Shown: positions 2,243 through 31,431 of the stretch, one piece after another
Layout of the letters: each line of letters begins with the position of its first letter
How positions within the stretch are numbered: position 1 is the stretch's first letter
Source: Sinorhizobium meliloti
GTDB taxonomy: Bacteria > Pseudomonadota > Alphaproteobacteria > Rhizobiales > Rhizobiaceae
Assembly (NCBI RefSeq): GCF_017876815.1
Contig: NZ_JAGIOS010000002.1
Coordinates: forward strand, 1,530,001-1,562,000
Direction: 5' to 3'
Length of the DNA: 32,000 nucleotides
Notes under the pieces: generated by a model
Databases searched by the model: none
Seen by the model: only the letters and a program-made list of their open reading frames with translations
Told to the model about the DNA's origin: nothing
Position numbers and translations under genes: made by a program

Positions 2243-2257
2243 GGAGGTCTGGACCTT

Positions 2258-7334: not shown

Positions 7335-7396
7335 GCCCTGCCAATGGCGGCTCCGCCTGTTGGCGGAGCTGCCTGTACCATGAAACGGCTGCTTCC

Positions 7397-8059: not shown

Positions 8060-8064
8060 CCGTC

Positions 8065-8724: not shown

Positions 8725-8738
8725 GGCTTCGCAATCCG

Positions 8739-9506: not shown

Positions 9507-9542
9507 GCAACCAATGAATTTGAAGAAGAAGTGGAGTGAAGC

Positions 9543-10783: not shown

Positions 10784-10824
10784 CAGGCGCCTCCGCTTCT
10801 GGTGGTGGTAGATCGTCCTTCTCT

Positions 10825-15590: not shown

Positions 15591-15644
15591 GAATGGAAAC
15601 CTCTTCTTCGGTAGCGGCCGGCAATACTCACTCAAGGATCCTCA

Positions 15645-15817
15645 TTCCTGTGCCTGTCACAGGAAACCAGCCAGCCCAAGTCCTTGGGCTGGAAAGCTCC
15701 CTTCCGCGCCGCAGACGCGGCGCTGCTGGATCCCTGTGACAAGCACAGGGATGAGGGAGGGAACGCGCCGCACCGACCAAGCGCGGGGACGCAGTGCCGG
15801 ACGGTGAGCCCGTCCGG
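15645..15817. repeat. intergenic mosaic of five consecutive stem-loops (REP/RIME-like element) between the SBP and permease genes
   Basis: Perfect stems read directly from the sequence. The five are TTCCTGTG-N5-CACAGGAA (15645-15665), CCAGCCCAAG-TC-CTTGGGCTGG (15671-15692), GCGCCGC-AGAC-GCGGCGC (15706-15723), ATCCCTGTG-N5-CACAGGGAT (15730-15752) and CCGGACGG-N5-CCGTCCGG (15797-15817). The first and fourth share the core CCTGTG-N5-CACAGG. Confidence 0.75.
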
Positions 15818-15834
15818 TACGGACCCGACCCGTC

Positions 15835-17073
15835 TTAGAGACCGCTATTCTCGGCGGCACTCTTCAAGGCATCTTCCGCAGAAGACTGGCCGAGCAGTGC
15901 TTCCTGGATCGCCTGCTGCAGGGCGGTCGAAAGCTCCTGATATTTCGGCGTCGTCGGGCGCGGATACATGGCGGCAAGTCCACGCTTGGCGGCGGCGATC
16001 AGCTCCTCCTGGCCCTTCGTCACATTCGGGTCCTCATAGGAAGAGGCCCAGATCGGGAGGCTCAGCTTGGCATAGGCGTTCTGCGTCTCCTGCGAGGTCA
16101 TATGGACGATATATTTCCAGGCCTCTTCAGGGTGCTTGCTGGTCGCGGTGATGCCGAGCCCCATGGAGCCGTTGACGGCCGAAACCTCGCTCTTGCCGGC
16201 AGCGCCCGGAGCCGGAACGACGCCGACCTTGCCGGCCACCTTGCTCTCCTTGGGATCGTTGGCGAGATTGTACATGTAGGTCCAGTTGAGCGCGAAGGCG
16301 GCTTCGCCGTTCTGGAAAACCTTCCGTACATCCTCTTCGAGGAATTCCTTCGAGTTCGGGTTGGTGAGCCCCGACGTGTAGCTCGTCACCATGTAGTTCA
16401 GCGCATCGAGCCCGCCGCCGGTCGTGAAGGCCGGCTTGCCGCCGTCGAGGAATTTGCCGCCATAGGCGCTGACCAGCGTCGTGTAGTCGCAGATCGCCGC
16501 TTCCGCCTGAGACCAGCTCCAGGCGATCGGGCTTTCGAGCAACCCCTTGTCCTTGATCGCCTTGGCCTGCTCGGCAAGTTCCTCCCAGGTCTTCGGCGGT
16601 TGCTTGATACCGGCTTTCTCAAGGATTTCCTTGTTGTAGAAGAGATACTTCGTGTCGAGGATCCACGGCATTCCGTAACGTTTGCCGTCATATTCCACGG
16701 TCGTCCATGCTCCCGGCAGGACGCCTTTGTTCATCTCGTCCGTGACGCGGTCGGTCACGTCTAGGAGAACGTTGTTGGCCGCGTATTCGGCAGGCCAGAT
16801 CACGTCGAAGAGGACGACGTCATAGCCGCCGCCGGAACCCTGGGCGAGCACCGTCTTGTCGTGCAGTCCCTCATAGGGAACGAATTCGAGATTGACCTTG
16901 ATGTCCGGGTTGGCCTTGGCGAAAGCATCCGTCATAGCGCGGACATCGGCCTCGCTATAGGCGGCCTGCGCCATGAACAGCGCATTCAGCGTCGTTTCAG
17001 CCTGAGCATGACCGGTGAAGCCGGCCCCGATGAGCGTCGCGCCGATCAAAGCGTTGCGGGTGGATTTCAACAT
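15835..17073 (-). CDS. carbohydrate ABC transporter substrate-binding protein (CUT1 family)
   Basis: Frame of track ORF 15835..17172, trimmed to the ATG at 17073, which is preceded by GGAGGCGACA. It has the signal peptide MLKSTRNALIGATLIGAGFTGHAQA|ETT and a family-1 extracellular SBP-like body of about 412 aa. Confidence 0.9.
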   Translation of the reverse strand: MLKSTRNALIGATLIGAGFTGHAQAETTLNALFMAQAAYSEADVRAMTDAFAKANPDIKVNLEFVPYEGLHDKTVLAQGSGGGYDVVLFDVIWPAEYAANNVLLDVTDRVTDEMNKGVLPGAWTTVEYDGKRYGMPWILDTKYLFYNKEILEKAGIKQPPKTWEELAEQAKAIKDKGLLESPIAWSWSQAEAAICDYTTLVSAYGGKFLDGGKPAFTTGGGLDALNYMVTSYTSGLTNPNSKEFLEEDVRKVFQNGEAAFALNWTYMYNLANDPKESKVAGKVGVVPAPGAAGKSEVSAVNGSMGLGITATSKHPEEAWKYIVHMTSQETQNAYAKLSLPIWASSYEDPNVTKGQEELIAAAKRGLAAMYPRPTTPKYQELSTALQQAIQEALLGQSSAEDALKSAAENSGL

Positions 17074-17235
17074 TGTCGCCTCCAGTAGCTGACCGTTGCA
17101 GTCTTCGCGGCGCGCCTGGCGCGCGCCGAACAGGAATTCCGCCGCTTCTCGCGGCCGCCTTCGACAAATCAAACCGGAGCGTTCGCGGGCATTTTCGGGC
17201 CGCTTTCGTTCCCCCGAGGTTCTTCGACCTCTTAT

Positions 17236-17256
17236 TAAGTCAATTGTCTTGACTTA
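17236..17256. promoter_or_regulatory. candidate operator: perfect 8-bp inverted repeat TAAGTCAA-N5-TTGACTTA in the divergent SBP/ROK promoter region
   Basis: TAAGTCAA (17236-17243) and TTGACTTA (17249-17256) are exact reverse complements. The repeat is AT-rich and lies 42 nt upstream of the ROK start and about 165 nt upstream of the SBP start. Confidence 0.45.
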
Positions 17257-17297
17257 TTTCTTGTTCAATAGTCCAGATGTGTCAAGAGGGTTTGTTC

Positions 17298-18527
17298 ATG
17301 AACGAGATCCGCCCGATCCGGGCCAAGAGCGGCACCAATCAGGAGGGCGCGAGCGCACACAACCGCCGTGTCATGATCGACGCTCTGCGGCTGAACGGGC
17401 ATCTGTCCCGGGCCGATCTGGCGCGTGCGACCGCACTCACCAAGCAGGCCGTTTCCAACATCATCGAGGAGCTCGAGAACGACGGGCTCGTGGCGTCGCT
17501 TGCCGCGGTGCGCAAGGGGCGGGGACAGCCATCGACGCCCTATCGGCTGGTACCGGAAGGCGCCTTTGCCATCGGCCTTCAGATCGACCGGCACGTGACG
17601 CGCACGGTCGCCGTCGACCTGATCGGCACAGTCCTCGCCCGCAACGAGGTGATCCTGCCGGCCGGCGGTCCTGAGACGGGTGTCGAGGCCATACTCACCC
17701 TGATCGACGAAACACGGCAGGAACTTTCGGCCATGGCACCGCAATCCAGGGACCGTCTGGTGGGTCTGGGTGTGGCGATGCCGGGCCCGTTCGGCGTCGA
17801 CGCCGACGCCGACGATCCCTGGATGATGGCTGCCTGGCAGAGCTTTCCCTTGCTTGAAAGGCTCGCGGCCGGGACTGGTCTCGACGTGCGCCTCCAGAAC
17901 GACGCGGCGGCGGCCGCGACCGCGGAAAAGATGGTCGGCGCTGCCCATGGAGTCGACCACGCCCTCTGCGTCTATCTCGGTTACGGTCTTGGAGCGGGAC
18001 TGATCCTCAATGGCGAACTCTATCGTGGCGCGCATGGCAATGCCGGCGAGATCGGCATGATTTTGAGCAGGCCGCGTGGCGGCGCCGACGACGGGAGGGC
18101 ACCGCTGGAGCACCGGATATCGATCGCCTCTCTGTGCAAGATTCTCGAGATCGATCCCGCCGATGGCGATCTCTACGGCCGCATCGACGCCGTCGCTCAC
18201 TTGAAGGATCGTCGCGTAGCTGCCTGGATCGCAGAGGCGGCGTTCGAATTGCGGGCGACGATCCAGTTGCTCGAAACGGTTTTCGATCCGCAGATGATCA
18301 TTCTATGCGGCGGCATGCCATCCGGGCTCGCTCGCCTTCTCATGGACGCTCTCCACCCGCTGCTGCCGTCGATCGCCGAGCGGCGGCAACGCAGCGCGCC
18401 GCGGCTGCAACTGGGTTTCACGGACCCGTGGGCGGTTGCGATCGGTGCCGCGGCCGAGCCGATCAGCCGGACCTTCGATCCGCGCTTTTCAGCGATCCTA
18501 AAGACGCGGGCCGCGGGGCCGCCCTGA
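17298..18527 (+). CDS. ROK-family transcriptional regulator (NagC/XylR-like)
   Basis: Frame of track ORF 17277..18527. I prefer the ATG at 17298, which has AAGAGGG 7 nt upstream. It has an N-terminal wHTH (NRRVMIDALRLNGHLSRADLARATALTKQAVSNIIEELENDGLV) and a ROK sugar-binding domain with the GAHGNAGEIG motif. Confidence 0.85.
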   Translation: MNEIRPIRAKSGTNQEGASAHNRRVMIDALRLNGHLSRADLARATALTKQAVSNIIEELENDGLVASLAAVRKGRGQPSTPYRLVPEGAFAIGLQIDRHVTRTVAVDLIGTVLARNEVILPAGGPETGVEAILTLIDETRQELSAMAPQSRDRLVGLGVAMPGPFGVDADADDPWMMAAWQSFPLLERLAAGTGLDVRLQNDAAAAATAEKMVGAAHGVDHALCVYLGYGLGAGLILNGELYRGAHGNAGEIGMILSRPRGGADDGRAPLEHRISIASLCKILEIDPADGDLYGRIDAVAHLKDRRVAAWIAEAAFELRATIQLLETVFDPQMIILCGGMPSGLARLLMDALHPLLPSIAERRQRSAPRLQLGFTDPWAVAIGAAAEPISRTFDPRFSAILKTRAAGPP

Positions 18528-18734
18528 GCGCTAACGGCGTGGCGAATCGCTCGCGAAAATACGGATTGTTATTCTTACTTGAAATATTGCCGATATAGCG
18601 CTTAAATGCGCACCAGTCGGCGGGATCACATTTAACTGCTGCATGATTATTTGATTGCGTCTGCAACATTTCGCAGGCGGCTACATTTTTATTTGCATAC
18701 CATTTTTATTATCTAAAATCAGAGGGATTGCGAT

Positions 18735-19634
18735 ATGTCTCTTCCCCATCTTCGGCGGCTTGAAGCCGAAGCGATCCATGTCATTCGAGAAGTTGTTGCG
18801 ACATTCTCCAATCCGGTCGTGCTTTACTCGATCGGCAAAGACTCCTCGGTACTGCTGCACCTGGCGATGAAGGCGTTCTACCCCGCCAAGCCGCCATTTC
18901 CATTCCTGCATGTAGATACCAAATGGAAGTTCCGGGAGATGATCGAGTTTCGCGACCGGATGGCGCGAGAGCTCGGCTTCGATCTCCTCGTCCACGTCAA
19001 TCAGGACGGGGTCGAGCAGGGCATCGGGCCATTCACGCACGGTTCCAACGTGCACACCCATGTCATGAAGACGATGGGGCTCCGGCAGGCGCTCGAGAAA
19101 TACGGTTTCGACGCGGCGCTCGCAGGCGCGCGGCGCGACGAGGAGAAGTCGCGCGCCAAGGAACGCATCTTCTCGATTCGCAGCGCCCAGCACGGCTGGG
19201 ATCCGCAGCGCCAGCGGCCCGAGATGTGGAAGACTTACAATACGCGGGTCGGACAAGGCGAGACGATGCGAGTCTTCCCGCTTTCCAACTGGACCGAATT
19301 CGACATCTGGCAGTACATCCTGCGCGAGGAAATTCCGATCGTGCCGCTTTATTTCGCGGCCAGGCGCCCGGTCGTGAAGCGAGAGGGTATGCTGATCATG
19401 GTCGACGACGACCGCATGCCCATCCAACCCGAAGAGGAGGTTACCGAACAGCTCGTGCGTTTCCGCACGCTTGGCTGCTATCCGCTGACCGGGGCGGTCG
19501 AGTCCGACGCTGTCACCGTTCCCGAGATATTGCGGGAAATGCTGACGGTGCGCACGTCCGAACGGCAGAGCCGGCTGATCGACACGGATGAGGTCGGGGC
19601 GATGGAGAAAAAGAAGCGGGAGGGCTACTTCTGA
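18735..19634 (+). CDS. cysD: sulfate adenylyltransferase subunit 2 (CysD / NodP)
   Basis: 299-aa ORF with the PP-loop motif [12 protein letters not shown] and the conserved stretch [20 protein letters not shown]. The stop shares one base with the next start (TGATG). Confidence 0.95.
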
Positions 19635-21535
19635 TGTCGTATGTTCAATCCATACCACCGCATGACATTGAAGCGCATCTGGCCGAGCACGACAACAAGT
19701 CGATCCTGAGATTCATCACTTGCGGCTCGGTCGACGACGGCAAATCGACCCTGATCGGGCGACTGCTTTACGATGCGAAGCTGGTCTTCGAAGACCAGCT
19801 CGCAAACCTCGGGCGGGTCGGCTCTCCCGGCACCGCCAACGGTAAGGAGATCGATCTCGCCTTGCTTCTCGACGGGCTTGAGGCCGAGCGCGAGCAGGGC
19901 ATCACCATCGACGTGGCCTATCGCTACTTCGCCACGTCCAAACGCAAGTTCATCGTCGCCGATACGCCCGGCCACGAGGAATATACGCGCAACATGGTGA
20001 CCGGCGCTTCTACGGCGGATCTCGCCATCATCCTCATCGACAGCCGGCAGGGCATTCTCCAGCAGACCCGGCGCCACTCCTATATCGCCTCACTCCTCGG
20101 CATCCGCCATGTCGTGCTGGCCGTCAACAAGATCGATCTGGTTGATTATCAACAACAGGTGTACGAGGAAATCGTCGCCGACTACATGGCTTTCGCCAAA
20201 GAGCTCGGTTTTGCCAGCATACGGCCAATCCCGATCTCGGCGCGAGACGGCGACAACGTCATCTCGGCTTCCACCAATACGCCCTGGTACAGAGGGGCGG
20301 CGCTGCTCGAATATCTGGAAACGGTCGAACTCGAGCCAACGGACGAGGCAAGGCCTTTCCGCTTCCCGGTTCAGATGGTCATGCGGCCGAACGCGGATTT
20401 TCGCGGCTATGCCGGGCAGATCTCCTGCGGGAGGATTTCCGTGGGCGATCCGGTCGCCGTCGCGAAGACCGGGCAGCGCACATCGGTCAAGGCGATCGTG
20501 ACCTTTGACGGGGAGCTTGCGACGGCAGAGGAAGGCGAAGCGGTGACACTGGTCCTCTCTGACGAGGTGGATGCGTCCCGCGGCAATATGCTCGTCGCCC
20601 CCGGTGCCCGGCCCTTCGTGGCGGACCAGTTCCAGGCGCATGTGATCTGGTTCGATGCGAACCCGATGATGCCGGGACGAAGCTATATCCTGCGCACGGA
20701 GACCGACAGCGTCAGCGCGACGGTCACCACGCTCAAGCACCAGGTCAACATCAACAGCTTCATCCGTGAGGCGGCGAAGTCGCTGCAGATGAATGAAGTG
20801 GGTGTCTGCAACATCTCGACACAGGCGCCGATCGCCTTCGACGCCTACAAGGACAACCGGGCGACGGGCAATTTCATCATCGTCGACCGGGTGACGAATG
20901 CCACGGTTGGTGCGGGGTTGATCGATTTTCCGCTCCGGCGCGCAGACAACGTCCACTGGCATGCGCTCGAGGTTAACAAGAGCGCGCGCAGCGCCATGAA
21001 AAATCAGCTCCCTGCAGTTCTCTGGTTCACCGGGCTTTCCGGCTCCGGAAAATCGACCATCGCGAACGAGCTCGACAGGATCCTCCACGCTCAGGGCAAG
21101 CATACCTACCTGCTCGACGGCGACAATGTGCGTCACGGCCTTAACCGGGACCTCGGCTTTACCGAGGAGGACCGGGTAGAGAACATCCGCCGCGTGGCGG
21201 AGGTGGCCAAGCTCATGGCCGATGCCGGTCTGATCGTTCTCGTCTCCTTCATCTCGCCGTTCCGAGACGAGCGGCGGATGGCGCGGGAATTGATGGCGGA
21301 GGGCGAGTTCATCGAGATATTCGTCGACACGCCGCTCGACGAGTGTGCGCGCCGCGATCCGAAGGGGCTCTACGAGAAGGCGCTCGCCGGCAAGATCGCG
21401 AACTTCACCGGCGTATCCTCGCCCTATGAGGCCCCGGAAAATCCGGAACTCCATATACGCACCGTCGGCCATGAACCGACCGACCTGGCGCTCGCGATCG
21501 AGGAATTCCTTGACCGCAGGATGGAGGACAAATGA
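19634..21535 (+). CDS. cysNC: bifunctional sulfate adenylyltransferase subunit 1 / adenylylsulfate (APS) kinase (CysN-CysC fusion, NodQ-type)
   Basis: 633-aa ORF. The N-terminal GTPase has G1 [17 protein letters not shown] and NKID. The C-terminal APS kinase has the P-loop [14 protein letters not shown] plus [11 protein letters not shown]. This fused architecture is the one known from rhizobial NodQ. Confidence 0.95.
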
Positions 21536-22371
21536 CGCCCCTTTGCAAAATGCTGGAGCGCATAGCGCTCGATGCGGGAGCGGCAATTCTCGAGGTCTAC
21601 GACGCCGGTCCCCAAGTCTGCTACAAGGACGATCACTCGCCCGTCACCGAAGCCGACGAGCGGGCCGAAGCGATCATTCTCGAGAGACTTGCGGCGGCGT
21701 TTCCGCACATCCCCGTGGTTGCCGAGGAGTCTGTTTCCTCGGGCCGCGTTCCGGATATCAGCGGCGGCACGTTCTTTCTCGTCGATCCGCTCGACGGCAC
21801 GAAGGAATTCATCAATCGCCGAAACGACTTCACCGTCAACATTGCCCTCATCGAGGGCAATGTGCCGGTTGCCGGCATCGTCTATGCACCCGCGCAGCGC
21901 TGCGCCTATGTCGCCGACGGCGGCAGGGCGGAAAAGCTTCTGCTCGATCCGGCATGGGCACTCGAACACCGGCAGTCGATCCGCGTGAGGATGCGGGGTG
22001 TGGAACTGACGGCGGTTGCCAGCCGCTCGCACAACAGTTCCGAGACCGAGGCCTTCCTCAACGGCCACGGCGTCATGAACTACGCTTCCGTGGGCTCGTC
22101 GCTGAAATTCTGCCTGCTGGCTGAGGGCAAGGCGGACGTCTATCCGCGGTTCGGCCGCACGATGGAGTGGGATACGGCCGCCGGCGACGCGGTGCTGAAA
22201 GCTGCCGGCGGATCGGTCGTCCGCTTGGACGGCTCGCGCCTCCTCTACGGCAAGACGGTGCAGGAGGAGGACAGCGCCTTCGCAAACCCGCACTTCATCG
22301 CCTGGGCGGATATGTCCTCGCTCCACCTGTCCGGCGCCGAGGGTCTTCAGCCTGCTTACGCGCTGTCGTGA
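21532..22371 (+). CDS. cysQ: 3'(2'),5'-bisphosphate nucleotidase CysQ (inositol monophosphatase superfamily)
   Basis: 279-aa ORF whose ATG overlaps the cysNC stop (ATGA). It has the motifs [17 protein letters not shown] and [10 protein letters not shown], typical of CysQ/IMPase. Confidence 0.85.
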
Positions 22372-22417: not shown

Positions 22418-23158
22418 ATGAATGGACAGGAGAAGATACGTGCTGGCAGGCCTGTGTTCTGCCGCTATCGGGACATCAGCCGAGAGCAACTGAACGTGGA
22501 GTTCCAGGTTCACACGAGTTGGACCGACGGGCAGGCGACTGCGCTTGAAATCCTGCAAACGGCCAGTGAACGCGGTCTCGCAGAGCTGGCTTTCACGGAG
22601 CACGTACGCGAAGACACGTCATGGTTTCCTGAGTTCAGAGACGAGATCCGCTCCGCTGCGCGTGGTTTTGATCATATGAGCGTCTATGTCGGCTGCGAGA
22701 CGAAAGCGATGGATGACGACGGCAGGCTGGATGTGTCGCAGGACGTGCTGGACGGATGCGATATCGTTCTCGGCGTCGTTCACAGGCTCCCGGACGGACG
22801 CGGCGGCTATCTGGATTTCAAGCGGCTTTCCTATGAAGAGACCGCCGGGATCGAGTTTCGCCTGTCGATGGGAATGGTCAAAAACGCGCCCATCGACGTC
22901 CTGGCGCATCCGGGCGGCATGAGCCTGAGGCGGCACGGGCGTTTTCCGGAAACCTATTTCAGGGACTTGATGAGAGCGACCGTCGAACGGCGGATCGCGA
23001 TCGAGATCAACTCCTCCTACCTCGTCGACATGCCGGCGTTTCTGGCCCTGTGCGAGGAGGTCAATCCGTTCGTTTCGATCGGTTCCGATGCGCACCGGTT
23101 GAGCGAACTGGGCCATTGCAGAGATCAGCTAATCGAATTGGGAGCAGGGCGGTCATGA
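22418..23158 (+). CDS. PHP-domain metal-dependent phosphoesterase (PolX/YcdX/HisJ-like), substrate unknown
   Basis: 246-aa ORF. PHP motifs are visible: QVHTSWTDG (motif I, with the first His replaced by Gln), FTEH, VVHR, LAHPG and GSDAH. It lies 46 nt after cysQ. Confidence 0.75.
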   Translation: MNGQEKIRAGRPVFCRYRDISREQLNVEFQVHTSWTDGQATALEILQTASERGLAELAFTEHVREDTSWFPEFRDEIRSAARGFDHMSVYVGCETKAMDDDGRLDVSQDVLDGCDIVLGVVHRLPDGRGGYLDFKRLSYEETAGIEFRLSMGMVKNAPIDVLAHPGGMSLRRHGRFPETYFRDLMRATVERRIAIEINSSYLVDMPAFLALCEEVNPFVSIGSDAHRLSELGHCRDQLIELGAGRS

Positions 23159-24147
23159 AGGTCTTTATCACCGGGGCAGGTGCCCTGCTCGGGCAAGGCA
23201 TCATTCGCGCTCTACGGCGCTCGACCTTGAACGCGAGGATAATCGTGGGAGACCCAAGTCCGCTCTCGGCCGGGCTTTACTGGGGGGATGCCGCCTATCT
23301 CGTGCCGATGGCCAAGGACCCTTCATATCTGGACCGGCTTGGCGAACTCCTGCATGCCGAACGGCCCGACATCCTCATTCCGGGAACCGACGTGGAACTT
23401 CCGATCCTCGCGGCGAACAGGAACGCGATCGAGAGAACCTACGGAACCAAGGTGATCATCAGTTCGCCGCGGGTGGTGTCGATCGCCAACGACAAGTGGC
23501 TGACCTCCGAGTTCTTTCGCGAGCGCGGCCTGGGATATGTTCCCTCCTGTCTGCCGGGCGATGAAGACGCTCTGATTCAGGAATGCGGATTTCCGCTCGT
23601 CATCAAACCGAGAGTCGGGGCACGTTCGATCGGCTTCAGCGTCGTTCGCAACCGCGAGCAGTTGGCGCGCGCAATTGAGGAGCAGCCCGGGATCGTGATC
23701 CAGAAACATGTCGGCTCCGAAACGAGCGAGTACACCGCCGGCACGCTGACCTTCAACGGGAAGTGCCGTGCGACGATCGTCATGCGCCGGGACCTTCGGG
23801 ACGGCAATACCTACAGGGCATTTGCAGAGCCTTTCCCCGCACTGAACAAGGCCATGGCAGAAGCTGCCGATGCCCTCGGTGCCTATGGTCCGGCGAACTT
23901 CCAGTTCCGTCTGGACGACGGTGTCCCCCGCATCTTCGAGATCAATGCGCGGTTCTCCGGAACCACGGCGGTCAGGATCCATGCGGGCTTCAACGAGGTG
24001 GAGATGTGCATCCGCCATCTTCTCTTCGACGAGCCGATCGAGCAGCCGCAGATCACGCCGGTGACGATATTGCGGCACTGGTCTGAAACCGTGGTGAGCC
24101 CCGGCGACCTGGTCACTGCGCCCGCGAAACTCGACGAGACGGTGTGA
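23155..24147 (+). CDS. ATP-grasp family ligase (carbamoyl-phosphate-synthase-L-chain-like fold), substrate unknown
   Basis: This is the real 3' part of track ORF 23050..24147. The start is the ATG at 23155 (MKVFITGAGALLGQGIIRAL...), overlapping the PHP stop (ATGA). It has a pre-ATP-grasp N-domain, the ATP-binding segment FPLVIKPRVGARSIGF and the catalytic E-x-N motif IFEINARFSGTT. About 330 aa. Confidence 0.8.
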   Translation: MKVFITGAGALLGQGIIRALRRSTLNARIIVGDPSPLSAGLYWGDAAYLVPMAKDPSYLDRLGELLHAERPDILIPGTDVELPILAANRNAIERTYGTKVIISSPRVVSIANDKWLTSEFFRERGLGYVPSCLPGDEDALIQECGFPLVIKPRVGARSIGFSVVRNREQLARAIEEQPGIVIQKHVGSETSEYTAGTLTFNGKCRATIVMRRDLRDGNTYRAFAEPFPALNKAMAEAADALGAYGPANFQFRLDDGVPRIFEINARFSGTTAVRIHAGFNEVEMCIRHLLFDEPIEQPQITPVTILRHWSETVVSPGDLVTAPAKLDETV

Positions 24148-25088
24148 GGAAGATGCGGCTGGTGGTTACCGGCGCGACCGGCTTCATCGGTGCCAGATTG
24201 ATCGATCGTGCCCTGTCGAGAGGGTACGAGGTCACTGCACTTGCGCGCGATCCGGAGCGGGCCGCAGCCAGAATCGGCGCGCGTCTCGGCGTCGAGAAAT
24301 GGTCGATCGGCGATCCTCTCCCGCCGCTAGGTCAATCCGATGCCGTTCTTCATCTTGCCGCCTACATTCCCGCCGATCTCAGCGATGCGCGTCAGGCCGC
24401 CCGATGCTTCGAGATCAACACGAACGGGGCCATCCAGATCGCGATGGAAGCGGCATCGCAGGGCGTGAAGCGTTTTGTCCTGTTCGGATCCGCGCAGGTC
24501 TATGCTCCCGGCACGGAGCCCGCTTCGGAAGCGAGCCCGGCCTATCCCGTGCACCGGGCGAGCTACTATCTGGCGAGCAAGCTCGCGGCCGAAATCTGTG
24601 TGCTGGCCTTCGGCAAATCCAGCGCCATGCCGGTCACGGTGCTCCGCCTCGCATCGGTGTACGGTCCCGGCATGCACGATACCGGAATGGTGCCCACCTT
24701 CGTACGAACACTCGGAAGCGGGCGTTCCCTCGTCATTCAGGACGGGGGGCGATACAGTGTCGACCTAGTCTATGTCGACGATGTCGTGACGCTGGCGCTG
24801 CAGGCGGTGGAGACAGCCGAAGGCGGCGTATTCAATGCGGGGAGCGGGCGTGCTTGCACGTCGCTGGAAGCCGCCCAGATCGTCGCCGATGCAGTCGGGG
24901 CAGAACGGCACCTCATTGCCGTGGAGGGCGACAGCACCGATGCGGCGCCGCGCGGTTTCAGGGTCCTCAACGTTTCCAAGGCCGCAAACGAACTGAGCTA
25001 CGCGCCGCTCTCCTTCCGGGAAGGGATCGAAGCATGGAAATCGATGACGGGCCTGACGGATTTTCAGGACGGGAGCGTGAACGCGTAG
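24144..25088 (+). CDS. NAD(P)-dependent epimerase/dehydratase (extended SDR)
   Basis: 314-aa ORF whose GTG at 24144 overlaps the ATP-grasp stop (GTGA); an alternative ATG lies at 24153. It has the Rossmann motif VVTGATGFIG and the catalytic YxxxK (YLASK). Confidence 0.85.
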   Translation: MRKMRLVVTGATGFIGARLIDRALSRGYEVTALARDPERAAARIGARLGVEKWSIGDPLPPLGQSDAVLHLAAYIPADLSDARQAARCFEINTNGAIQIAMEAASQGVKRFVLFGSAQVYAPGTEPASEASPAYPVHRASYYLASKLAAEICVLAFGKSSAMPVTVLRLASVYGPGMHDTGMVPTFVRTLGSGRSLVIQDGGRYSVDLVYVDDVVTLALQAVETAEGGVFNAGSGRACTSLEAAQIVADAVGAERHLIAVEGDSTDAAPRGFRVLNVSKAANELSYAPLSFREGIEAWKSMTGLTDFQDGSVNA

Positions 25089-25091
25089 TAG

Positions 25092-25152
25092 GCTTCGAAA
25101 CAGGCAATTGGTTCGAAGCGCAGCGACGCGCGTCCATAGACGCGCTGCGCTG
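25092..25152. terminator. two tandem hairpins in the 85-bp convergent gap (possible bidirectional terminator)
   Basis: GCTTCGAA-N12-TTCGAAGC (25092-25119), then CAGCGACGCGCG-N8-CGCGCTGCGCTG (25121-25152; 10 of 12 positions pair). They lie between the SDR stop (25088) and the RTX stop (25174). There are no clear U-tracts, hence the modest confidence. Confidence 0.4.
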
Positions 25153-25173
25153 CGCCGACGCTTCCTTCACCGA

Positions 25174-26337
25174 TCAGGCGAAAAGGAAATCGCTGCTCGA
25201 AAAGTTCGCGGCGCTAAGGGTGCCGTTGGGATCGTCCAGCAGAATGGAGAAGGCTTTGCCGGAGGAGTCGTAGCCTTTTACCAGCACGTCGCCGCCCGTG
25301 GCATCATAGGCGTAGACGGTGCCTGCAGCGCCTGAGCTGGAGTATTGCTTAATCCCGAGCTTCTCTATGACGAGGAAATCGACGCCATCCTGGAAATCCA
25401 TGACGGTATCCTGACCACTGAGCACCGGGGCACCTTTGAAGACGAAACGATCGGAATCGGCTCCGCCCCATAGAATATCGGTTCCCGCCTCGCCGATGAG
25501 GACATCCCGGCCGGCGTCGCCGCGCAGGGTATCGTTGCCGTCGCCGCCGAAAATGCGATCGTAGTTGTTGCCGCCGCTCAAGGAATCGTTGCCGGCTTCG
25601 CCGTACAGCATGTCGTCACCGTCATCCCCGAAGACCCGATCGTCGCCGGCACCGACGACGATCTTGTCATTGCCGATGCCGCCGTGGGCCTCGTCGATGC
25701 CGCCCTCGGAATCCAGCACGTCATTACCGTCGCCACCGTCGAGATAGTTGTTCCCGTCGCCGCCATCGACGATGTCGTTGCCGATGCCGCCATAAACCCA
25801 ATCATTGCCGGATTGGCCCTTGAGAGCGTCATTGCCGTCTTCACCATATATCCTGTCGTGGCCGGCGCCGCCGGCGACCGCTTGCTGCGTGACCTGCCCG
25901 GTTGCGGGATTTACCCGGTTGTTGAAGCCGTCGTCTCCCGAACCGGCATAGATGATGTCGTCGCCATCCCCTGCGTCGATGTATTCTTCGCCTGCGCCGC
26001 CAAAAATCTTGTCGTGGCCCCGGCCGCCCAGGATCTGGTCATGGCCGTCGCCGCCATCGAGAATGTCGCTGCCGTCACCGCCGTCTAAGATGTCGTTCCC
26101 TAGTCCGCCCTTCAGCGTGTCATGGCCAAGGCCGCCGTCGAACCGGTCGTTACCCGCGCCACCTTCGGCATAGTCGTCGCCGAGCCCGCCGACGATGAAG
26201 TCATTGCCATCGCCGCCAAAAAGCTTGTCATTGCCCTCGGCGCCATCGAGATAGTCGTCGCCCGCGTAGCCCCAGAGCTCATCGTCGCTCAGAGCGCCGC
26301 GGATCGTGTCGGAAAGATTGGTTCCCTTCAGAATCAT
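25174..26337 (-). CDS. RTX (hemolysin-type calcium-binding) beta-roll repeat protein, probable type I secretion substrate
   Basis: 387-aa ORF with no N-terminal signal peptide. By my reading it has about 28 GGxGxDxUx nonapeptides in two blocks (for example GGDGNDFIVGGLGDDYAEGGAGNDRFDGGLGHDTLKGGLGNDILDGGDGSDILDGGDGHD), separated by an 18-aa linker. An acidic/hydrophobic C-terminal non-repeat domain ends in ...SSSDFLFA. Confidence 0.9.
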   Translation of the reverse strand: MILKGTNLSDTIRGALSDDELWGYAGDDYLDGAEGNDKLFGGDGNDFIVGGLGDDYAEGGAGNDRFDGGLGHDTLKGGLGNDILDGGDGSDILDGGDGHDQILGGRGHDKIFGGAGEEYIDAGDGDDIIYAGSGDDGFNNRVNPATGQVTQQAVAGGAGHDRIYGEDGNDALKGQSGNDWVYGGIGNDIVDGGDGNNYLDGGDGNDVLDSEGGIDEAHGGIGNDKIVVGAGDDRVFGDDGDDMLYGEAGNDSLSGGNNYDRIFGGDGNDTLRGDAGRDVLIGEAGTDILWGGADSDRFVFKGAPVLSGQDTVMDFQDGVDFLVIEKLGIKQYSSSGAAGTVYAYDATGGDVLVKGYDSSGKAFSILLDDPNGTLSAANFSSSDFLFA

Positions 26338-26600: not shown

Positions 26601-27683
26601 TTAAGCCATTAGGAATTCCGAATATTTGGTGGTCACTGCAGCAATCGCATACTCATTCTCGATGCGTTCCCGCGCCGTGCGCGCATAGCGCGCATACTCC
26701 GCCTCCGGCAGGTCGAGAAAGGCGCGCATTGCATCGGCGAGCGCTTGGGGATCGCGCGCCGGTACGGCGATACCGGCCTTTCCGGCGACCGCGGCTGCGT
26801 CACCGACATCCGTCGTGACGATCGGCTTGCCGAAACTCATGGCCTCCGCGATGACGTTCGGGAAACCTTCGGTCCGCGATGAGAGGACCAAGAGATCGAT
26901 GCCTTGATAGAATTCAGGCATGTCGCTGACCTCCCCCCGGAGATCGACGGCGTGGGCCGGAAGACCGGCTTGTGCCATCAGCTCGATGACCGCCGGGTTG
27001 TCACGGACGAGTCCGTTGCCGGCTGCGGAAAAGACCGCCTGCGGGTGGGTCTTCACCACCTGAGCGGCCGCCTTGAAGAAAGTTCCGTGATCTTTCTGCG
27101 GGTGGAAGCGGCCCACAATACCTATTCGCCGAGCCGTTCGCGGTTCGGGAGCCGCGAGCTGCGGAAGGTCAAAGCCATTGGGAATGACGACCGCGTTCCG
27201 GTTTGCATAGCCGTACGCGCGATGCAGATCGAGCGCGCGGGCGCTGTTGTAGATGATGCCGCTCGGCCGCTGCGACAACAGTTTCGCGGCCGCAATCGCG
27301 ACGCGGGAACTGCGCGTAAGGGAAGCGGGATCGTCCAGAGACTGGCGCACGTTCCAGAAAACCGGCGCCCGATGCCGCGCCATGCCCGCCGCCAGGGTGC
27401 CGGCGACCATCGCGTGGTACATCCAGCAGAGGATCACGTCAGGCTGCTCCTTCCGGATCAGTCGGGCAAGCCGCAGGATCGCGCCGGGAAGCGCCGCGAG
27501 CGAAGCCGCTCCTAACGGGACATAGGCGACCCTCGGATTGTCGGCGAGGCGACGGTTCCGCTCGGAAACGCCGATGAGAGAGACCACGACGATGCGCTCG
27601 TCCGTCGCACCGCGCAGCAGCCGCGCCAGCATCGTTTCGGCGCCGGCGCTCGCGGTGAAATTGGTGATGACATGCATTATCAT
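26601..27683 (-). CDS. glycosyltransferase family 4 (GT-B, Glycos_transf_1)
   Basis: Frame of track ORF 26601..27755. I prefer the ATG at 27683 (MIMHVITNFTASAGAE..., a canonical GT4 N-terminus). The GTG at 27755 would overlap the upstream stop in a GTGA junction, so it remains possible. The C-terminal motif is LVLSSRTEGFPNVIAEAMSFGKPIVTTDVG (the E-x7-E region). Confidence 0.85.
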   Translation of the reverse strand: MIMHVITNFTASAGAETMLARLLRGATDERIVVVSLIGVSERNRRLADNPRVAYVPLGAASLAALPGAILRLARLIRKEQPDVILCWMYHAMVAGTLAAGMARHRAPVFWNVRQSLDDPASLTRSSRVAIAAAKLLSQRPSGIIYNSARALDLHRAYGYANRNAVVIPNGFDLPQLAAPEPRTARRIGIVGRFHPQKDHGTFFKAAAQVVKTHPQAVFSAAGNGLVRDNPAVIELMAQAGLPAHAVDLRGEVSDMPEFYQGIDLLVLSSRTEGFPNVIAEAMSFGKPIVTTDVGDAAAVAGKAGIAVPARDPQALADAMRAFLDLPEAEYARYARTARERIENEYAIAAVTTKYSEFLMA

Positions 27684-27751
27684 CGCAGCGACCCATGTCT
27701 GCCGCTCCGGCGACGTTCTCGGTGGCTGATCTGCGGCACGATGAAAATCCC

Positions 27752-28978
27752 TCACTCGGCCAGGTGCATGCCGGCAAACAGCATCCTGTTGATCATGTGG
27801 ACGTCAAACTTGGTTTCCGCGAGCTCTCGCGACCGCGTTCCCATTTTCTCTGACAGGTCCGGGTCCTGCGCAAAGGCGACCATGGCGTCGGCGAGCGCGG
27901 CGACGTCGCGCGGCTTCACGACCATACCATTGGTTCCCGGCTGCACGGTGTCTCGGCAGCCCGGCAAATCCGTCGTGATCACTGGCCGTCCCGTCGCCAG
28001 GGCCTCGAGAATGCTCCGCGGAATTCCTTCGCGGTAATAGGAAGGCAGAACGAAAACACTACACGCCGCGAGATAAGGCCGCACGTCCACTGTCGTGCCA
28101 AGGTAGTCGAGTATTCCCTCGCGTACCCAGCCGTCGATTTCCTCGCGGGAAATCGCCGTCGGGTTGCTGTCGAAATGGCCGAGCAGCTGAAATCTGGCAT
28201 GCGGGAAAGAGCGACGCACGATCCGTGCGGCTTCGACATATTCGACGACGCCCTTGTCGCGCAGCAGCCGGGCGACCATCAGGAAAGTCGGCCCGCCGCG
28301 AGGCGGCTTCGAGAATTCGAAATGGTCGAGATCGACGCCCGATCCGGAGATCATCGTAGGCGAGAGGCCGGCCTGCAACATTCGGTAGCGGCGAATGTCG
28401 TCGTCGTCCGCGTCGTTGTAGACGAAGACGACGCGGGCGCCCCGCAGCGCAGTACGGTATAGGCGGACGCACAGGTGGCGGATTGCCCGCGCCTTGAGCG
28501 AAGCACCGGCGGCCTCCGAGAATATATGGCCGAGCCCCGTGACGAGAAAGCAGCGCTCCTTTATCCCGAGCGTCCTGGCCGCGATCCCGGCATAGATGAT
28601 CGGCTTCATGGTATAGGGAAGGACGACGTCAGGCTGCAGCCGTGCGAAGTGTCGCCGCAGCGTGCACAAGGTCCGCAGATCCTCCAGCGGGTTGAGCCCG
28701 GTGCGCGCCATGGGGATCTGGATGAAGCGCACGCCGATGCATGCAAGCTCCTGCTCGACCCGGGCGTCGTGTTCGGGTGCGAAGGCTATGACATCGTGCC
28801 CGGCGGCGACCAACCGCTTCAGCAGCTCGAGCCGAAAGATCACGAGAGATGCCGTTAGGCTGGCGACGACGGCAATAACGCGCTTCTGCCGAGACGGGCG
28901 CGCCACTCCGCCGTGTTTTGCCAAATGGTCCGTAAAGTGCTCGGCTTCGGTGCGAGAAACCTTTTCAACAAGATTCAC
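27752..28978 (-). CDS. glycosyltransferase family 4 (GT-B), WbuB/WbjE/PglA-like architecture
   Basis: 408-aa ORF with a GTG start. After a roughly 30-aa leader the core starts at KRVIAVVASLTASLVIFRLELLKRLVAAGHDV. The C-terminal motif is VFVLPSYYREGIPRSILEALATGRPVITTDLPG. The exact start is uncertain. Confidence 0.8.
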   Translation of the reverse strand: MNLVEKVSRTEAEHFTDHLAKHGGVARPSRQKRVIAVVASLTASLVIFRLELLKRLVAAGHDVIAFAPEHDARVEQELACIGVRFIQIPMARTGLNPLEDLRTLCTLRRHFARLQPDVVLPYTMKPIIYAGIAARTLGIKERCFLVTGLGHIFSEAAGASLKARAIRHLCVRLYRTALRGARVVFVYNDADDDDIRRYRMLQAGLSPTMISGSGVDLDHFEFSKPPRGGPTFLMVARLLRDKGVVEYVEAARIVRRSFPHARFQLLGHFDSNPTAISREEIDGWVREGILDYLGTTVDVRPYLAACSVFVLPSYYREGIPRSILEALATGRPVITTDLPGCRDTVQPGTNGMVVKPRDVAALADAMVAFAQDPDLSEKMGTRSRELAETKFDVHMINRMLFAGMHLAE

Positions 28979-29159: not shown

Positions 29160-31358
29160 TCACCTTCCGGGCAGGCGGAACTCCGCGCGGTAGCCGCGTG
29201 GTGATTTCGCTTCCTTGGCCTTGATCCGGCTCTTCGGCCGCAACGGTGTGCGTTTGCTCGCGGCCGCCATCTTGCGATCCGCCTCGTGCTCATATCGAGG
29301 AAGCAATTCGCGCATGACCGCCACGACGCTGGCCTCGTTCCCCCGTTCCGAATGGCGCTGCAGGCGCGCGAAAGCGTCCCTCAGCGTCGGCAGCGGAATG
29401 GGTTCGGGGACCGCTCCGAGGACGCCTGGGACCGGCGAGCTCGTGCGCTTGTCGGTCTCGTCGAAAAGCTCCTCGAAGAGCTTTTCGCCCGGCCGGCAGC
29501 CGATGATCTTGATTTCGATCTCCTGGTCCGGCGTGAAGCCGGCAAGCCGGATCATCCGGCGGGCGATATCGATGATCTTGATCGGTTCACCCATGTCCAG
29601 CACGAAGATCTCGCCCTGGCCGAGCTGCTTTTCGAAGCCGTAGGCGGAAGCCTGCAGGGTGAGTTCCACCGCCTCGCGGATCGTCATGAAGAACCGAGTC
29701 ATATTCGCGTCGGTCACGGTCAGGGGGCCGCCCCGGGCCAATTGACGCTTGAAGAGCGGAATCAGCGAACCGCTGGAACCCAGCACGTTGCCGAAGCGGA
29801 CGGTCATGAAGCGCGGGCCGAGGCCTGTTTCGAGCCCGTTCAGGTCGAGCGCCTGACAGTAGAGCTCGGCAAGACGCTTCGTCGCGCCCATGACGCTCGT
29901 CGAGTTGACGACCTTGTCGGTCGACACCTGGACCATCGCGAGCGTGCCGTATTTCTTGGCGGCGTTGGCGACATTCATGGTGCCGACGACATTGGTGAGT
30001 ACGCCCTCGCAAGGATTCATCTGGACCATCGGCACATGTTTCAAAGCCGCGGCGTGAAAGACGAGCTCAGGCCGGTGCCGCTCGAATATCTCCTCGACCC
30101 GCTGACTGCGGCGGACGCTGCAAAGATAGCTCCACCGCGGAAGTTCGGGGAAGCTTTCCGTGAGCGTCATGTCGATTGCGTAGAGATTGTATTCCGTGTT
30201 GTCGATCAGGACGATCTCCGCCGGTTCGCAGGCGGCGACCTGGGCCGTCAACTCGCTGCCGATCGAGCCGCCGGCTCCGGTGATGAGCACCCGGCGCCCG
30301 CGAACGAGGCGACCGATCGCCTCCCGGTCGAGCGCTGCCTGCGGCCGTTCCAGGAGGTCGGTCAATTCGATCGAGCGCAGCTCGTACGGGTTGTCACCCT
30401 TGGCGCGCTTCAGCTCCGTCATCTGCGACAGGCGCGAAACGGCAATGCCTAGTCTTTCGGCCGATCTCAAAAGGCCGTCGGATGCCTCCTCTCCAAAGGC
30501 CGCGGGGGCCTCGGTGAAGACGATGTGACGCGGCTGCTTGCCCTGTTGCTGCAACTCTGCAACCACCCGCTCGAAGTCTTGAATACGGCCGGCGATCGGC
30601 ACGCCGCGCAGGCTCATGCCGGTTTGATCCTCACTCCTGTCGAGGCATGCGACGGGCGTATAGGTCGCGTTGGGATCGCGTGCGAGAGCCCGAAGGTAAA
30701 GGTCGGCGGCATCGCTCGCGCCGATGAGCAGCAGCGGAATTCGCTTATCGTCCTGTGCGTCCTTGCTGCGCCCGGACTTGAAAACGGGCCGCCTCAGAGC
30801 GAGTTCCTCAGCACGGAAGCTCAGCCGCGCAGCTGCCAGGAAGGCGATGAGCAGGAGCGACTGCATCGGGACGACGGTGCGCGGGATGTCGGTGAGCCTG
30901 GTCGAGAAAAACAGCAGCGAGACGAGCAGCAGCGAGGTCAGCAACACCGCCCGCAAAATGATGAAAAGGTCGGAAATGGACCCATATTTCCAATTTCGGC
31001 TGTAGAGGCCGGAGAGGGGGAAAACGAGTGCGCATATGGTGAGGTATTGCGCACCCGACCATAGCAGCACCGAGGCGGTCTCTGGTCGTGCGGAAAGTTC
31101 TTCGACGCCGTAGCGTAGCAATAATGCCATCGCGAGCGCGACGCCGACCGATGCCAGGTCGGTGAGATAGAGGGCAGGATATTTCTGAACGCTGCGGACC
31201 GCTCCCCTTATCCGCCTGAAGCCGATATCGAGGGCGGCTCCGCAGATCGCCCAGAACATTCTGGCCGGTGCTCTGCTGCCCCCCTCTCTTCCCAAAATAG
31301 TCGGTAACGCCAGGAAATGATTACGAACTGCCTTCGCGGCGGCGTGTATACGCTGCAT
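29160..31358 (-). CDS. membrane-anchored nucleotide-sugar 4,6-dehydratase (WbpM / PglF / CapD family polysaccharide biosynthesis protein)
   Basis: Track ORF 29160..31373, with a likely start at MQRIH (31358). The N-terminal third has several hydrophobic helices, followed by the Rossmann motif VLITGAGGSIGSEL. The SDR catalytic region (STDKVVNSTSVMGATKRLAE) is typical of UDP-GlcNAc 4,6-dehydratases. A basic C-terminal tail follows. Confidence 0.85.
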   Translation of the reverse strand: MQRIHAAAKAVRNHFLALPTILGREGGSRAPARMFWAICGAALDIGFRRIRGAVRSVQKYPALYLTDLASVGVALAMALLLRYGVEELSARPETASVLLWSGAQYLTICALVFPLSGLYSRNWKYGSISDLFIILRAVLLTSLLLVSLLFFSTRLTDIPRTVVPMQSLLLIAFLAAARLSFRAEELALRRPVFKSGRSKDAQDDKRIPLLLIGASDAADLYLRALARDPNATYTPVACLDRSEDQTGMSLRGVPIAGRIQDFERVVAELQQQGKQPRHIVFTEAPAAFGEEASDGLLRSAERLGIAVSRLSQMTELKRAKGDNPYELRSIELTDLLERPQAALDREAIGRLVRGRRVLITGAGGSIGSELTAQVAACEPAEIVLIDNTEYNLYAIDMTLTESFPELPRWSYLCSVRRSQRVEEIFERHRPELVFHAAALKHVPMVQMNPCEGVLTNVVGTMNVANAAKKYGTLAMVQVSTDKVVNSTSVMGATKRLAELYCQALDLNGLETGLGPRFMTVRFGNVLGSSGSLIPLFKRQLARGGPLTVTDANMTRFFMTIREAVELTLQASAYGFEKQLGQGEIFVLDMGEPIKIIDIARRMIRLAGFTPDQEIEIKIIGCRPGEKLFEELFDETDKRTSSPVPGVLGAVPEPIPLPTLRDAFARLQRHSERGNEASVVAVMRELLPRYEHEADRKMAAASKRTPLRPKSRIKAKEAKSPRGYRAEFRLPGR

Positions 31359-31431
31359 GACGGCCCCTTCCAATACTTTTAAGCCCTACAGCTCCGCCGA
31401 ACGACGAACGCACGACCCCCCAAAGCTCTTA

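Follow-up and report, generated by a model that had tools for sequence, protein, structure and literature searches.

ATP-grasp ligases that acylate 4-amino sugars are known from bacterial glycan pathways. In Bacillus cereus ATCC 14579, uridine diphosphate (UDP)-Yelosamine is made by the dehydratase Pdeg, the aminotransferase Pat and the ATP-grasp enzyme Pyl, which joins a free carboxylic acid, 2-oxoglutarate, to the C4 amine of a UDP-4-amino-4,6-dideoxy-N-acetylhexosamine (HexNAc) (Hwang et al. 2014 JBC, as summarised in PMC11626204 and PMC8987622). In Neisseria, PglB2 is a bifunctional protein, part phosphoglycosyl transferase (PGT) and part ATP-grasp enzyme, in which the latter replaces the acetyltransferase domain of PglB and gives 4-glyceramido-2-acetamido-2,4,6-trideoxyhexose (GATDH) as the product (2007 work, as cited in PMC11130364 and PMC6959607); an ORF8 is inserted together with pglB2. 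We analysed a stretch of 32,000 nucleotides of Sinorhizobium meliloti DNA (hereafter the window; contig NZ_JAGIOS010000002.1, positions 1,530,001 to 1,562,000 of the forward strand) and describe in it three genes, for a PHP-domain phosphoesterase, an ATP-grasp ligase (SMb21227) and an extended short-chain dehydrogenase/reductase (SDR). This trio is most likely a conserved, widespread three-enzyme version of Pyl/PglB2-type amino-sugar acylation. Like Pyl, SMb21227 is encoded near a UDP-N-acetylglucosamine (UDP-GlcNAc) 4,6-dehydratase, a C4 aminotransferase and a small PGT (Q814Z7 in B. cereus), and the reaction proposed for it is the one that Pyl carries out. Unlike Pyl, for which no phosphoesterase and no coupled or fused SDR is described in those summaries of the work, it belongs to a three-gene unit and to a family found in about ten phyla, NCBIfam NF009402. 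As in PglB2, the ATP-grasp enzyme would replace the bacillosamine acetyltransferase, and a PGT-ATP-grasp architecture recurs within NF009402 (P0194, P0277-P0279), whereas SMb21227 stands alone as a protein, with PHP and SDR genes coupled to its own. The likeness that we propose to both systems is thus one of architecture, context and presumed chemistry; neither Pyl nor PglB2 was among the matches listed, and searches with a PGT-ATP-grasp query and with the 2pn1 sequence listed no named Neisseria protein and no B. cereus protein, respectively. An initial annotation of this DNA, made from the letters of the sequence, had stated that the known ATP-grasp enzymes of glycan loci add amino acids or amines to uronic acids; Pyl and PglB2, which acylate 4-amino sugars, make that statement incomplete.

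The module lies on the megaplasmid pSymB; NZ_CP021795 matches the region at 100% identity and strain 1021 (790320-792990) at 99.8%. The locus tags SMb21227 and SMb21228 are the published ones. Four genes of the window are central to the argument:

22418-23158, + strand: PHP-domain phosphoesterase SMb21226 (Pfam PHP 1.5e-10, 42 bits against a cut-off of 26)
23155-24147, + strand: ATP-grasp ligase SMb21227 (330 amino acids from ATG; NCBIfam NF009402)
24144 (GTG) or 24153 (ATG, PGAP) to 25088, + strand: extended SDR SMb21228 (Pfam Epimerase 1.8e-46; 314 amino acids from 24144)
29160-31373, - strand: membrane WbpM/PglF-type UDP-GlcNAc 4,6-dehydratase SMb21232 (Pfam Polysacc_synt_2 3.5e-108 and CoA_binding_3)

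SMb21226, SMb21227 and SMb21228 are one three-gene unit. The stop codon of the PHP gene overlaps the start codon of the ATP-grasp gene (ATGA at 23155-23158). At the second junction the DNA around 24141-24150 reads acgGTGTGAgg, and a GTG start of the SDR gene at 24144 would overlap the TGA stop of the ATP-grasp gene; the start given by PGAP and GenBank is the ATG at 24153 (L001 21736), 5 nucleotides past that stop and with GAGGAAG ahead of it. Hence the GTGA overlap by which the initial annotation had coupled the two genes exists in the DNA but depends on the start codon chosen, and the coupling is tight either way. The open reading frames (ORFs) and the motifs VIKPRVG, EINARFSG, GATGFIG and YLASK are present where they had been reported, with key residues conserved across orthologues, and both genes are clearly real. 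The pairing of ATP-grasp and SDR genes as a unit of two stood only in part, since the third gene, that of the PHP phosphoesterase, had been missed.

SMb21227 has the ATP-grasp fold, the ATP-binding lysine and the Mg-binding E-x-N motif of its superfamily. The motif VIKPRVG occupies residues 149-155 and FEINARFSG residues 261-269; K151, E262, N264 and R266 are invariant in an alignment of 14 sequences from several phyla. R89, R153, R157, R212, R215, R221, R274 and R307 are invariant as well and, with R266, might form a second phosphate-binding site. Residues 1-319 align with positions 3-328 of the 329-position NF009402 profile at 465 bits (cut-off 218). This NCBIfam family (PRK12767.1-1, 'carbamoyl phosphate synthase-like protein') is uncharacterised, and its proteins are unusually conserved, with 50-60% identity across about ten phyla; SMb21227 has 2046 homologues at E<=1e-5, about 60% identical across phyla, and its Pfam matches are ATPgrasp_Ter, PylC-like_N and ATP-grasp_3. 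We ruled out a primary-metabolism ATP-grasp enzyme (PurK, PurT, Ddl, RimK or carbamoyl phosphate synthase (CPS)) on the NCBIfam scores and the Foldseek ranking. The primary-metabolism models of NCBIfam gave SMb21227 17-41 bits against cut-offs of 143-1027: Ddl 27-28 (243-246), RimK 25 (143), PurT 23 (339), CPS 17-22 (599-1027), PylC 22 (248) and LysX 20 (276). The AlphaFold (AF2) model is confident (pLDDT 90.9). Foldseek ranked the uncharacterised structure 2pn1 first (E 5e-24), followed at about 1e-17 by PurK, CPS, PylC, biotin carboxylases, PurT and L-amino-acid ligases; of these, PurK, PylC, PurT and the L-amino-acid ligases acylate or carboxylate amines. A firm home in a primary-metabolism family, which that annotation had named as one outcome that would overturn it, was therefore not found, and its placing of a coupled ATP-grasp enzyme and extended SDR in a glycan locus is supported.

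The structure 2pn1, from Exiguobacterium sibiricum, was solved by structural genomics and is named 'carbamoylphosphate synthase large subunit'. It is also the best sequence match (2e-19), with a TM score of 0.77-0.82 to SMb21227. Its family resembles NF009402 in lying beside PglF-like and DegT genes in Firmicutes; it differs from SMb21227 in sharing only about 22% identity with it and in the absence of an adjoining phosphoesterase or SDR gene at the two loci examined. At one glycan locus of the 2pn1 family (Bacillus sp. JJ1532, L093:3923-6102), a pyridoxal phosphate (PLP)-dependent decarboxylase of the ornithine/arginine/diaminopimelate type is encoded directly upstream of the ATP-grasp gene and may make the partner substrate there.

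Linkage was counted at 80 species-representative NF009402 loci from about ten phyla by tblastn with reference neighbour proteins; de novo clustering of ORFs from the neighbourhoods was dropped, as antisense ORFs were picked at high GC. Carriers were found in the Alpha- and Gammaproteobacteria, Myxococcota, Chloroflexota, Planctomycetota, Acidobacteriota, Actinomycetota, Gemmatimonadota, Cyanobacteria and Firmicutes; Sphingobium chlorophenolicum, Rhizobium setariae and Chlorogloeopsis fritschii PCC 6912 are easily grown carriers of the module. A phosphoesterase gene adjoins the module at 73/80 loci, 35 of the PHP type and 38 of the metallophosphoesterase type: the PHP gene lies directly upstream of the ATP-grasp gene (35/80), and the metallophosphoesterase gene lies either directly upstream of it (22/80) or directly after the SDR gene (16/80). 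The SDR gene follows the ATP-grasp gene immediately at 65 of the 80 loci, and a DegT gene takes its place at five; the presence of the phosphoesterase and that of the SDR are associated (Fisher p=0.002). At least one gene for a DegT aminotransferase, a small Bac_transf PGT or a WbpM/PglF dehydratase lies within 10 kb at 66/80 loci. Over the same distance a WbpM relative occurs at 39/80, a Ugd-family 6-dehydrogenase at 7/80 and a PglD-like acetyltransferase at 5/80, and the module is accompanied by a PIG-L deacetylase at 10/80 and by a formyltransferase at 12/80. Rhizobiaceae relatives (L019-L024) have a single operon in the order Wza, PGT, formyltransferase, PIG-L, DegT, PHP, ATP-grasp, SDR; the same genes are scattered in the S. 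meliloti cluster. Among 5,426 E. coli genomes no homologue was found with an enterobacterial metagenome-assembled genome (MAG) gene as query, which left no tie to a structurally known O antigen, and tblastn against plasmids gave rhizobial and distant matches only.

The two phosphoesterase families are unrelated and hold the same position, a case of non-orthologous displacement; the ATP-grasp tree separates a PHP-linked clade from a Metallophos-linked clade with three exceptions. Both families keep their catalytic metal ligands. In the PHP proteins H32, D37, E61, H62, E94, H122, H164, D224 and H226 are invariant in 37 orthologues, and SMb21226 thus has the trinuclear metal site of PHP phosphoesterases; Gln replaces the first His of its HxH motif, a substitution shared with the PolX PHP domain to which it aligns. 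We considered whether SMb21226 could be a CpsB-type tyrosine phosphatase acting on the Wzz/Etk kinase of the cluster, or a phosphatase of 3'-phosphoadenosine-5'-phosphate (PAP) redundant with CysQ, and set both aside, because the phosphoesterase accompanies the ATP-grasp enzyme where kinase and sulfation genes are lacking and is fused to it in some organisms. The match of SMb21226 to the pAp-phosphatase model is negligible (19 bits, cut-off 400).

A search of 1.84 billion representative proteins revealed that the partners of the ATP-grasp enzyme can also be joined to it covalently. We found PHP-ATP-grasp fusions (P0137 and P0148), Bac_transf-ATP-grasp fusions (P0194, P0277, P0278 and P0279), ATP-grasp-SDR fusions (P0173 and P0163), a Metallophos-ATP-grasp fusion (P0240) and a fusion of PglD_N/Hexapep to ATP-grasp (P0259). 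The ATP-grasp parts of P0194, P0137 and P0173 score 289, 333 and 305 bits on NF009402, above the cut-off of 218, and are therefore members of that family. The fused parts match the stand-alone partners at 1e-29 (PHP, P0137), 6e-18 (SDR) and 9e-9 (Metallophos), and the fusion loci adjoin DegT and PglF-like genes. No glycosyltransferase-ATP-grasp fusion was present among the multi-domain representatives examined. Further fusions join ATP-grasp to a methyltransferase or to an Acetyltransf_6/FemAB-like domain. The latter, of about 720 amino acids, are numerous and are found along with adjacent gene pairs of the same two types in Verrucomicrobiota and others (P0121, P0162, P0283-P0381; L089:880-3032), and hint that the acyl group is there further extended by an aminoacyl-transferase-like enzyme.

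The surrounding genes indicate what is acylated. The initial annotation had noted a WbpM-like dehydratase about 4 kb away, and SMb21232 indeed carries the sequence STDK...MGATK. The motif TDKxnMx3K marks the PglF/WbpM type (PMC8987622 Table 1), and SMb21232 probably supplies a 4-keto sugar that is later aminated and acylated. Beyond the window the cluster holds a DegT aminotransferase (SMb21248), a Bac_transf 'sugar transferase' of 226 amino acids, a PIG-L deacetylase, a formyltransferase, three sulfotransferases, a Wzz/Etk-type protein, a Wzy-like protein, a flippase and Wza, so that all three of 4,6-dehydratase, C4 aminotransferase and PglC-type PGT are present in S. meliloti. Two subtypes, with little sequence in common, make up the DegT enzymes linked to the module. 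That of locus L006 matches 1o61/4ztc, which we take to be Campylobacter jejuni PglE, at 330 bits (1.5e-97). SMb21248 matches 7L7X at 450 bits (4e-134); this structure is Pcryo_0638, an enzyme demonstrated to produce UDP-2-acetamido-4-amino-2,4,6-trideoxy-D-glucose and only 27% identical to PglE (PMC8040287). Since dehydratase, aminotransferase or PGT genes accompany the module in most lineages and the DegT proteins are related to C4 aminotransferases, the sugar most likely supplies the amine and not the carboxylate. The PglF/WbpM motif together with the PglE- and Pcryo_0638-like DegT enzymes places the module where bacillosamine pathways have PglD, and the near absence of PglD-like genes fits a replacement of the PglD step by the ATP-grasp enzyme. 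Like PglD and Pcryo_0637, which acylate UDP-2-acetamido-4-amino-2,4,6-trideoxyglucose after PglF and PglE or Pcryo_0638 have acted, SMb21227 would work on that amino sugar; it differs from them in that they have an unrelated fold, a left-handed beta-helix, and use a thioester donor instead of ATP and a free acid.

We therefore propose SMb21227 as an ATP-dependent N-acyl ligase for a UDP-4-amino sugar, by analogy with Pyl and PglB2. SMb21248 would aminate the 4-keto sugar to UDP-2-acetamido-4-amino-2,4,6-trideoxyhexose; SMb21227 would convert a free carboxylic acid to its acyl phosphate and join it to the C4 amine, filling the slot of the acetyl-coenzyme A (CoA)-dependent PglD of bacillosamine pathways. 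The acyl donor is probably a phosphorylated central metabolite, the simplest candidates being 3-phosphoglycerate, which would give a glyceramide as in GATDH, and O-phosphoserine; a phosphorylated acid is suggested by a phosphoesterase that is near-obligatory, displaceable and sometimes fused. The PHP enzyme, or the metallophosphoesterase elsewhere, would strip the phosphate after ligation, and the GalE-like SDR might then oxidise, reduce or epimerise the UDP-bound product, on the acyl side chain or at the C3 hydroxyl, which would be its only free ring hydroxyl. The small PglC-type transferase SMb21246 would finally load the finished sugar onto undecaprenyl phosphate. The C4 amine is well supported by context as the probable acceptor, and what we suggest for the acid donor, for the phosphoesterase's substrate and for the SDR's reaction and place in the pathway is weakly supported, the roles of the last two enzymes following from linkage and chemical logic. 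Taken as a whole, the reading in which the trio N-acylates UDP-2-acetamido-4-amino-2,4,6-trideoxyhexose in a cryptic surface polysaccharide pathway of S. meliloti is one that we favour at somewhat better than even chances.

Several observations weigh against it. The DegT and PGT genes of S. meliloti lie about 24 kb from the module. The formyltransferase and the PIG-L deacetylase of the cluster would allow the ATP-grasp enzyme to acylate a freed C2 amine instead. Genes for DegT, PGT and dehydratase are all missing from the 10-kb surroundings of 14/80 loci, and glycan genes of any kind are missing around one myxobacterial locus. In that Myxococcota MAG (L003:6993-10653), the gene of a 314-amino-acid protein without a Pfam match precedes the trio of ATP-grasp, SDR and Metallophos genes; the neighbours are HisKA, DUF350/DUF4178 and spermine-synthase genes, and the nearest 8 kb hold no glycan genes. 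Four Lujinxingia loci (L027, L030, L031 and L051) have an ATP-grasp enzyme about 60% identical, no phosphoesterase or SDR gene and a PglD-like hexapeptide acetyltransferase gene nearby, which weakens the case for an obligatory phosphorylated donor; together with P0259 they suggest that the pathway has a variant whose ligase may attach an amino acid, to be N-acetylated afterwards. Finally, the role proposed for NF009402 is one assigned from genomic context, fusions and precedents.

SMb21228 has the features of an extended GalE-like SDR: a GxxGxxG motif (GATGFIG, residues 10-16, numbered from 24144), a catalytic Ser (S116), the YxxxK pair Y142-x3-K146 within YYLASK (residues 141-146), a length of about 310 residues and a C-terminal substrate domain. 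The first three of these features are conserved in 68 orthologues. Its best sequence matches in the PDB are GalE-type epimerases (4zrm, 2e-25) and WbmG, no model reached its cut-off in the NCBIfam scan, and Zou et al. 2017 label it 'sugar epimerase' (PMC5498481). We rejected a second 4,6-dehydratase, as the acid/base pair of such enzymes is absent from all 68 orthologues. That pair follows directly after the catalytic Ser/Thr as [ST]DE, [ST]DK or TDK...M (PMC8987622 Table 1); at this place SMb21228 has S-A-Q and its orthologues have S-[AG]-[QN]-x-Y, none of them [ST]DE, [ST]DK or TDK. An epimerase or ketoreductase, as first suggested from the DNA, is thus a reasonable assignment. Such an enzyme might instead stand outside the acylation route, merely co-transcribed, and supply the same repeat unit with another sugar (N-acetylquinovosamine, N-acetylfucosamine or N-acetylgalactosamine) as a UDP-4-keto-6-deoxy-HexNAc 4-reductase (like Preq or WbpV) or a UDP-HexNAc 4-epimerase. 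The GalE-like sequence with no dehydratase residues would suit this; so would the 15/80 loci from which the SDR is missing while ATP-grasp and phosphoesterase persist, and the reductase Preq that, in the published summaries of the B. cereus work, is found beside the dehydratase Pdeg. However, covalent ATP-grasp-SDR fusions have arisen at least twice (P0173 and P0163), and the SDR keeps its fixed place right after the ATP-grasp gene in 65/80 species across phyla; we consider an SDR that is a bystander to be unlikely.

The polarity of the ligation could also be reversed. The initial annotation had proposed sugar-acid amidation, or an SDR that generates a uronic acid-type precursor. Stated in full, a uronic acid, bound to UDP or to a polymer, would have its C6 carboxylate activated by the ATP-grasp enzyme and joined to a phosphorylated amine such as ethanolamine phosphate or serinol phosphate, the product of a DegT-like PLP enzyme. 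Dephosphorylation would fall to the phosphoesterase, and the SDR would serve as a UDP-uronate 4-epimerase. Riegert and Raushel have reportedly described such a system for the C. jejuni HS:2 capsule, with the uronate amidoligase Cj1438 (C-terminal ATP-grasp domain), the phosphatase Cj1435 and the PLP enzymes Cj1436 and Cj1437. That system resembles the module in its parts list (a DegT-family enzyme, an ATP-grasp enzyme and a phosphatase in a glycan locus) and in ligating a phosphorylated building block that is then dephosphorylated; it differs in joining a sugar carboxylate to a small amine, in using a phosphatase of the haloacid dehalogenase type and in having its ATP-grasp domain fused to glycosyltransferase domains. 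A Ugd-family dehydrogenase gene after the operon in Rhizobium setariae, a nucleotide-sugar dehydrogenase gene at the edge of the S. meliloti region and the GalE-like character of the SDR would agree with this polarity, which would also explain the phosphoesterase. Against it stand the rarity of uronate-forming genes (a 6-dehydrogenase gene at only 7/80 loci, against amino-sugar or PGT genes at 66/80), the close homology of the linked DegT enzymes to sugar C4 aminotransferases (330 and 450 bits), with PglF-type dehydratases alongside, and fusions that involve PglC- and PglD-type domains rather than glycosyltransferase domains. Of the marks of a Cj1438-type system, co-occurrence with a 6-dehydrogenase was seen at those 7/80 loci, and fusion to a glycosyltransferase in none of the multi-domain representatives examined. 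Uronic-acid amidation is improbable as the function of the module.

Acylation at C4, as we prefer it, has a further competitor within the Rhizobiaceae, where PIG-L might remove the 2-N-acetyl group, the formyltransferase formylate the C4 amine and the ATP-grasp enzyme re-acylate C2. Both genes lie in the module operon of the relatives described above and in the S. meliloti cluster, and sugar N-formyltransferases act on 3- or 4-amino groups. Yet PIG-L and formyltransferase genes are confined to 10/80 and 12/80 loci, most lineages offer a C4 amine alone, and the identity of the ATP-grasp enzymes across lineages (55-70%) argues for a single acceptor, which makes a C2 acceptor quite improbable. 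Most remote is a free small molecule or other non-glycan target, with glycan loci secondary and the ATP-grasp enzyme acting for example as a carboxylase, a carbamate-forming enzyme or a kinase: the myxobacterial trio among non-glycan genes, the bicarbonate-activating enzymes (PurK, CPS and biotin carboxylase) that are the nearest structures after 2pn1 and the Pfam name ATPgrasp_Ter, which points to Ter-operon metabolite pathways, speak for it, but the amino-sugar or PGT genes within 10 kb at 66/80 loci, the PglC- and PglD-type fusions and the glycan loci of the sister 2pn1 family make it very improbable indeed.

The remaining annotated genes of this part of the window belong to sulfate activation and to the polysaccharide cluster:

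18735-19634, + strand: nodP2/cysD (ORF, annotation)
19634-21535, + strand: nodQ2 (ORF, annotation)
21532-22371, + strand: cysQ (ORF; TIGR01331 match, 287 bits)
25174-26337, - strand: RTX-repeat calcium-binding protein SMb21229, 387 amino acids (Pfam HemolysinCabind 1.7e-59, ten stretches)
26601-27755, - strand: GT4 glycosyltransferase (Pfam Glycos_transf_1 and Glyco_transf_4)
27752-28978, - strand: GT4 glycosyltransferase (Pfam Glycos_transf_1 and Glyco_transf_4)

The genes nodP2, nodQ2 and cysQ, for synthesis of 3'-phosphoadenosine-5'-phosphosulfate (PAPS) and removal of PAP, are co-oriented with the module upstream of it, and cysQ ends 46 nucleotides before the PHP gene; they may share a transcript with the module. 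The sole promoter-like site on the + strand lies at 18692-18719 and no terminator-like site lies between the genes, which is weak evidence. A terminator-like hairpin at 23997-24016 falls inside the ATP-grasp coding sequence and was put down to chance, with three such sites against 5.9 in shuffled sequences. The two GT4 genes are part of the same polysaccharide cluster as the module. The position of SMb21229 between the module and the glycosyltransferases is conserved in Sinorhizobium only, and this gene, for which no evidence of membership in the pathway was found, is given as context. Long antisense or out-of-frame ORFs of 250-500 amino acids at 20090-21586 (- strand), 23323-24078 (- strand) and 24299-25273 (+ strand) are artefacts of high GC. 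Positions 1-18500 of the window, upstream of nodP2, hold unrelated genes of transport and metabolism: the sulfate ABC transporter genes cysTW near the PAPS genes, an amino-acid ABC system with RidA and an IclR regulator, a ROK regulator, and a sugar ABC system with a PfkB kinase and an aminotransferase.

Sulfation genes recur near the module elsewhere. Sulfotransferase-like genes lie within 10 kb at 20/80 loci, of which 13 from sphingomonads and that of Aureimonas (L085) have two each, and in a gammaproteobacterial MAG a sulfotransferase gene adjoins the SDR gene. The PAPS genes nodPQ or cysQ lie within 10 kb of the module at 15/80 loci; Sinorhizobium shows this linkage to the module, as do two sphingomonads at distances of up to 10 kb. 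The loci concerned are L062-L086 (Sphingomonadaceae), L085, L023, L024, L005:9981-10913 and the window itself (18735-22371). The product of the module may thus belong to sulfated glycans in several alphaproteobacterial lineages. For S. meliloti, the cluster of about 30 kb from nodP2 to smb21248 has been assigned to an unknown, probably sulfated polysaccharide, activated by Clr and cyclic AMP (cAMP) and put forward as a candidate signal in the control of secondary Medicago infection (Zou et al. 2017, PMC5498481). The literature found on SMb21226-28 consists of transcriptome tables, with no functional work. A bolder version of our proposal would make the trio a widespread, undescribed pathway to a new N-acyl sugar of the bacillosamine type, in which a phosphorylated central metabolite (for example 3-phosphoglycerate or phosphoserine) is set on the C4 amine and then dephosphorylated and tailored by redox chemistry, and in which, in S. 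meliloti and sphingomonads, the hydroxyl so exposed could be the site of sulfation on the Clr/cAMP-regulated polysaccharide; in this specific form we put it forward tentatively, as a possibility that we would not bet on.

To a glycobiologist the finding would be unsurprising in principle. Its interest for S. meliloti is that the nodP2-smb21248 cluster is among the last uncharacterised surface-polysaccharide loci of this model symbiont, and that the sugar which initiates or marks its product is probably a 2,4-diamino-trideoxyhexose with an unusual N-acyl group, a target that chemists can look for by mass and nuclear magnetic resonance. For the large orphan family NF009402 it offers a testable three-step chemistry. 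If true, this would add a new sugar to the bacterial glycan alphabet, help to predict the substrates of PglC-type PGTs and provide a tool for ATP-driven, CoA-independent acylation of amino sugars.

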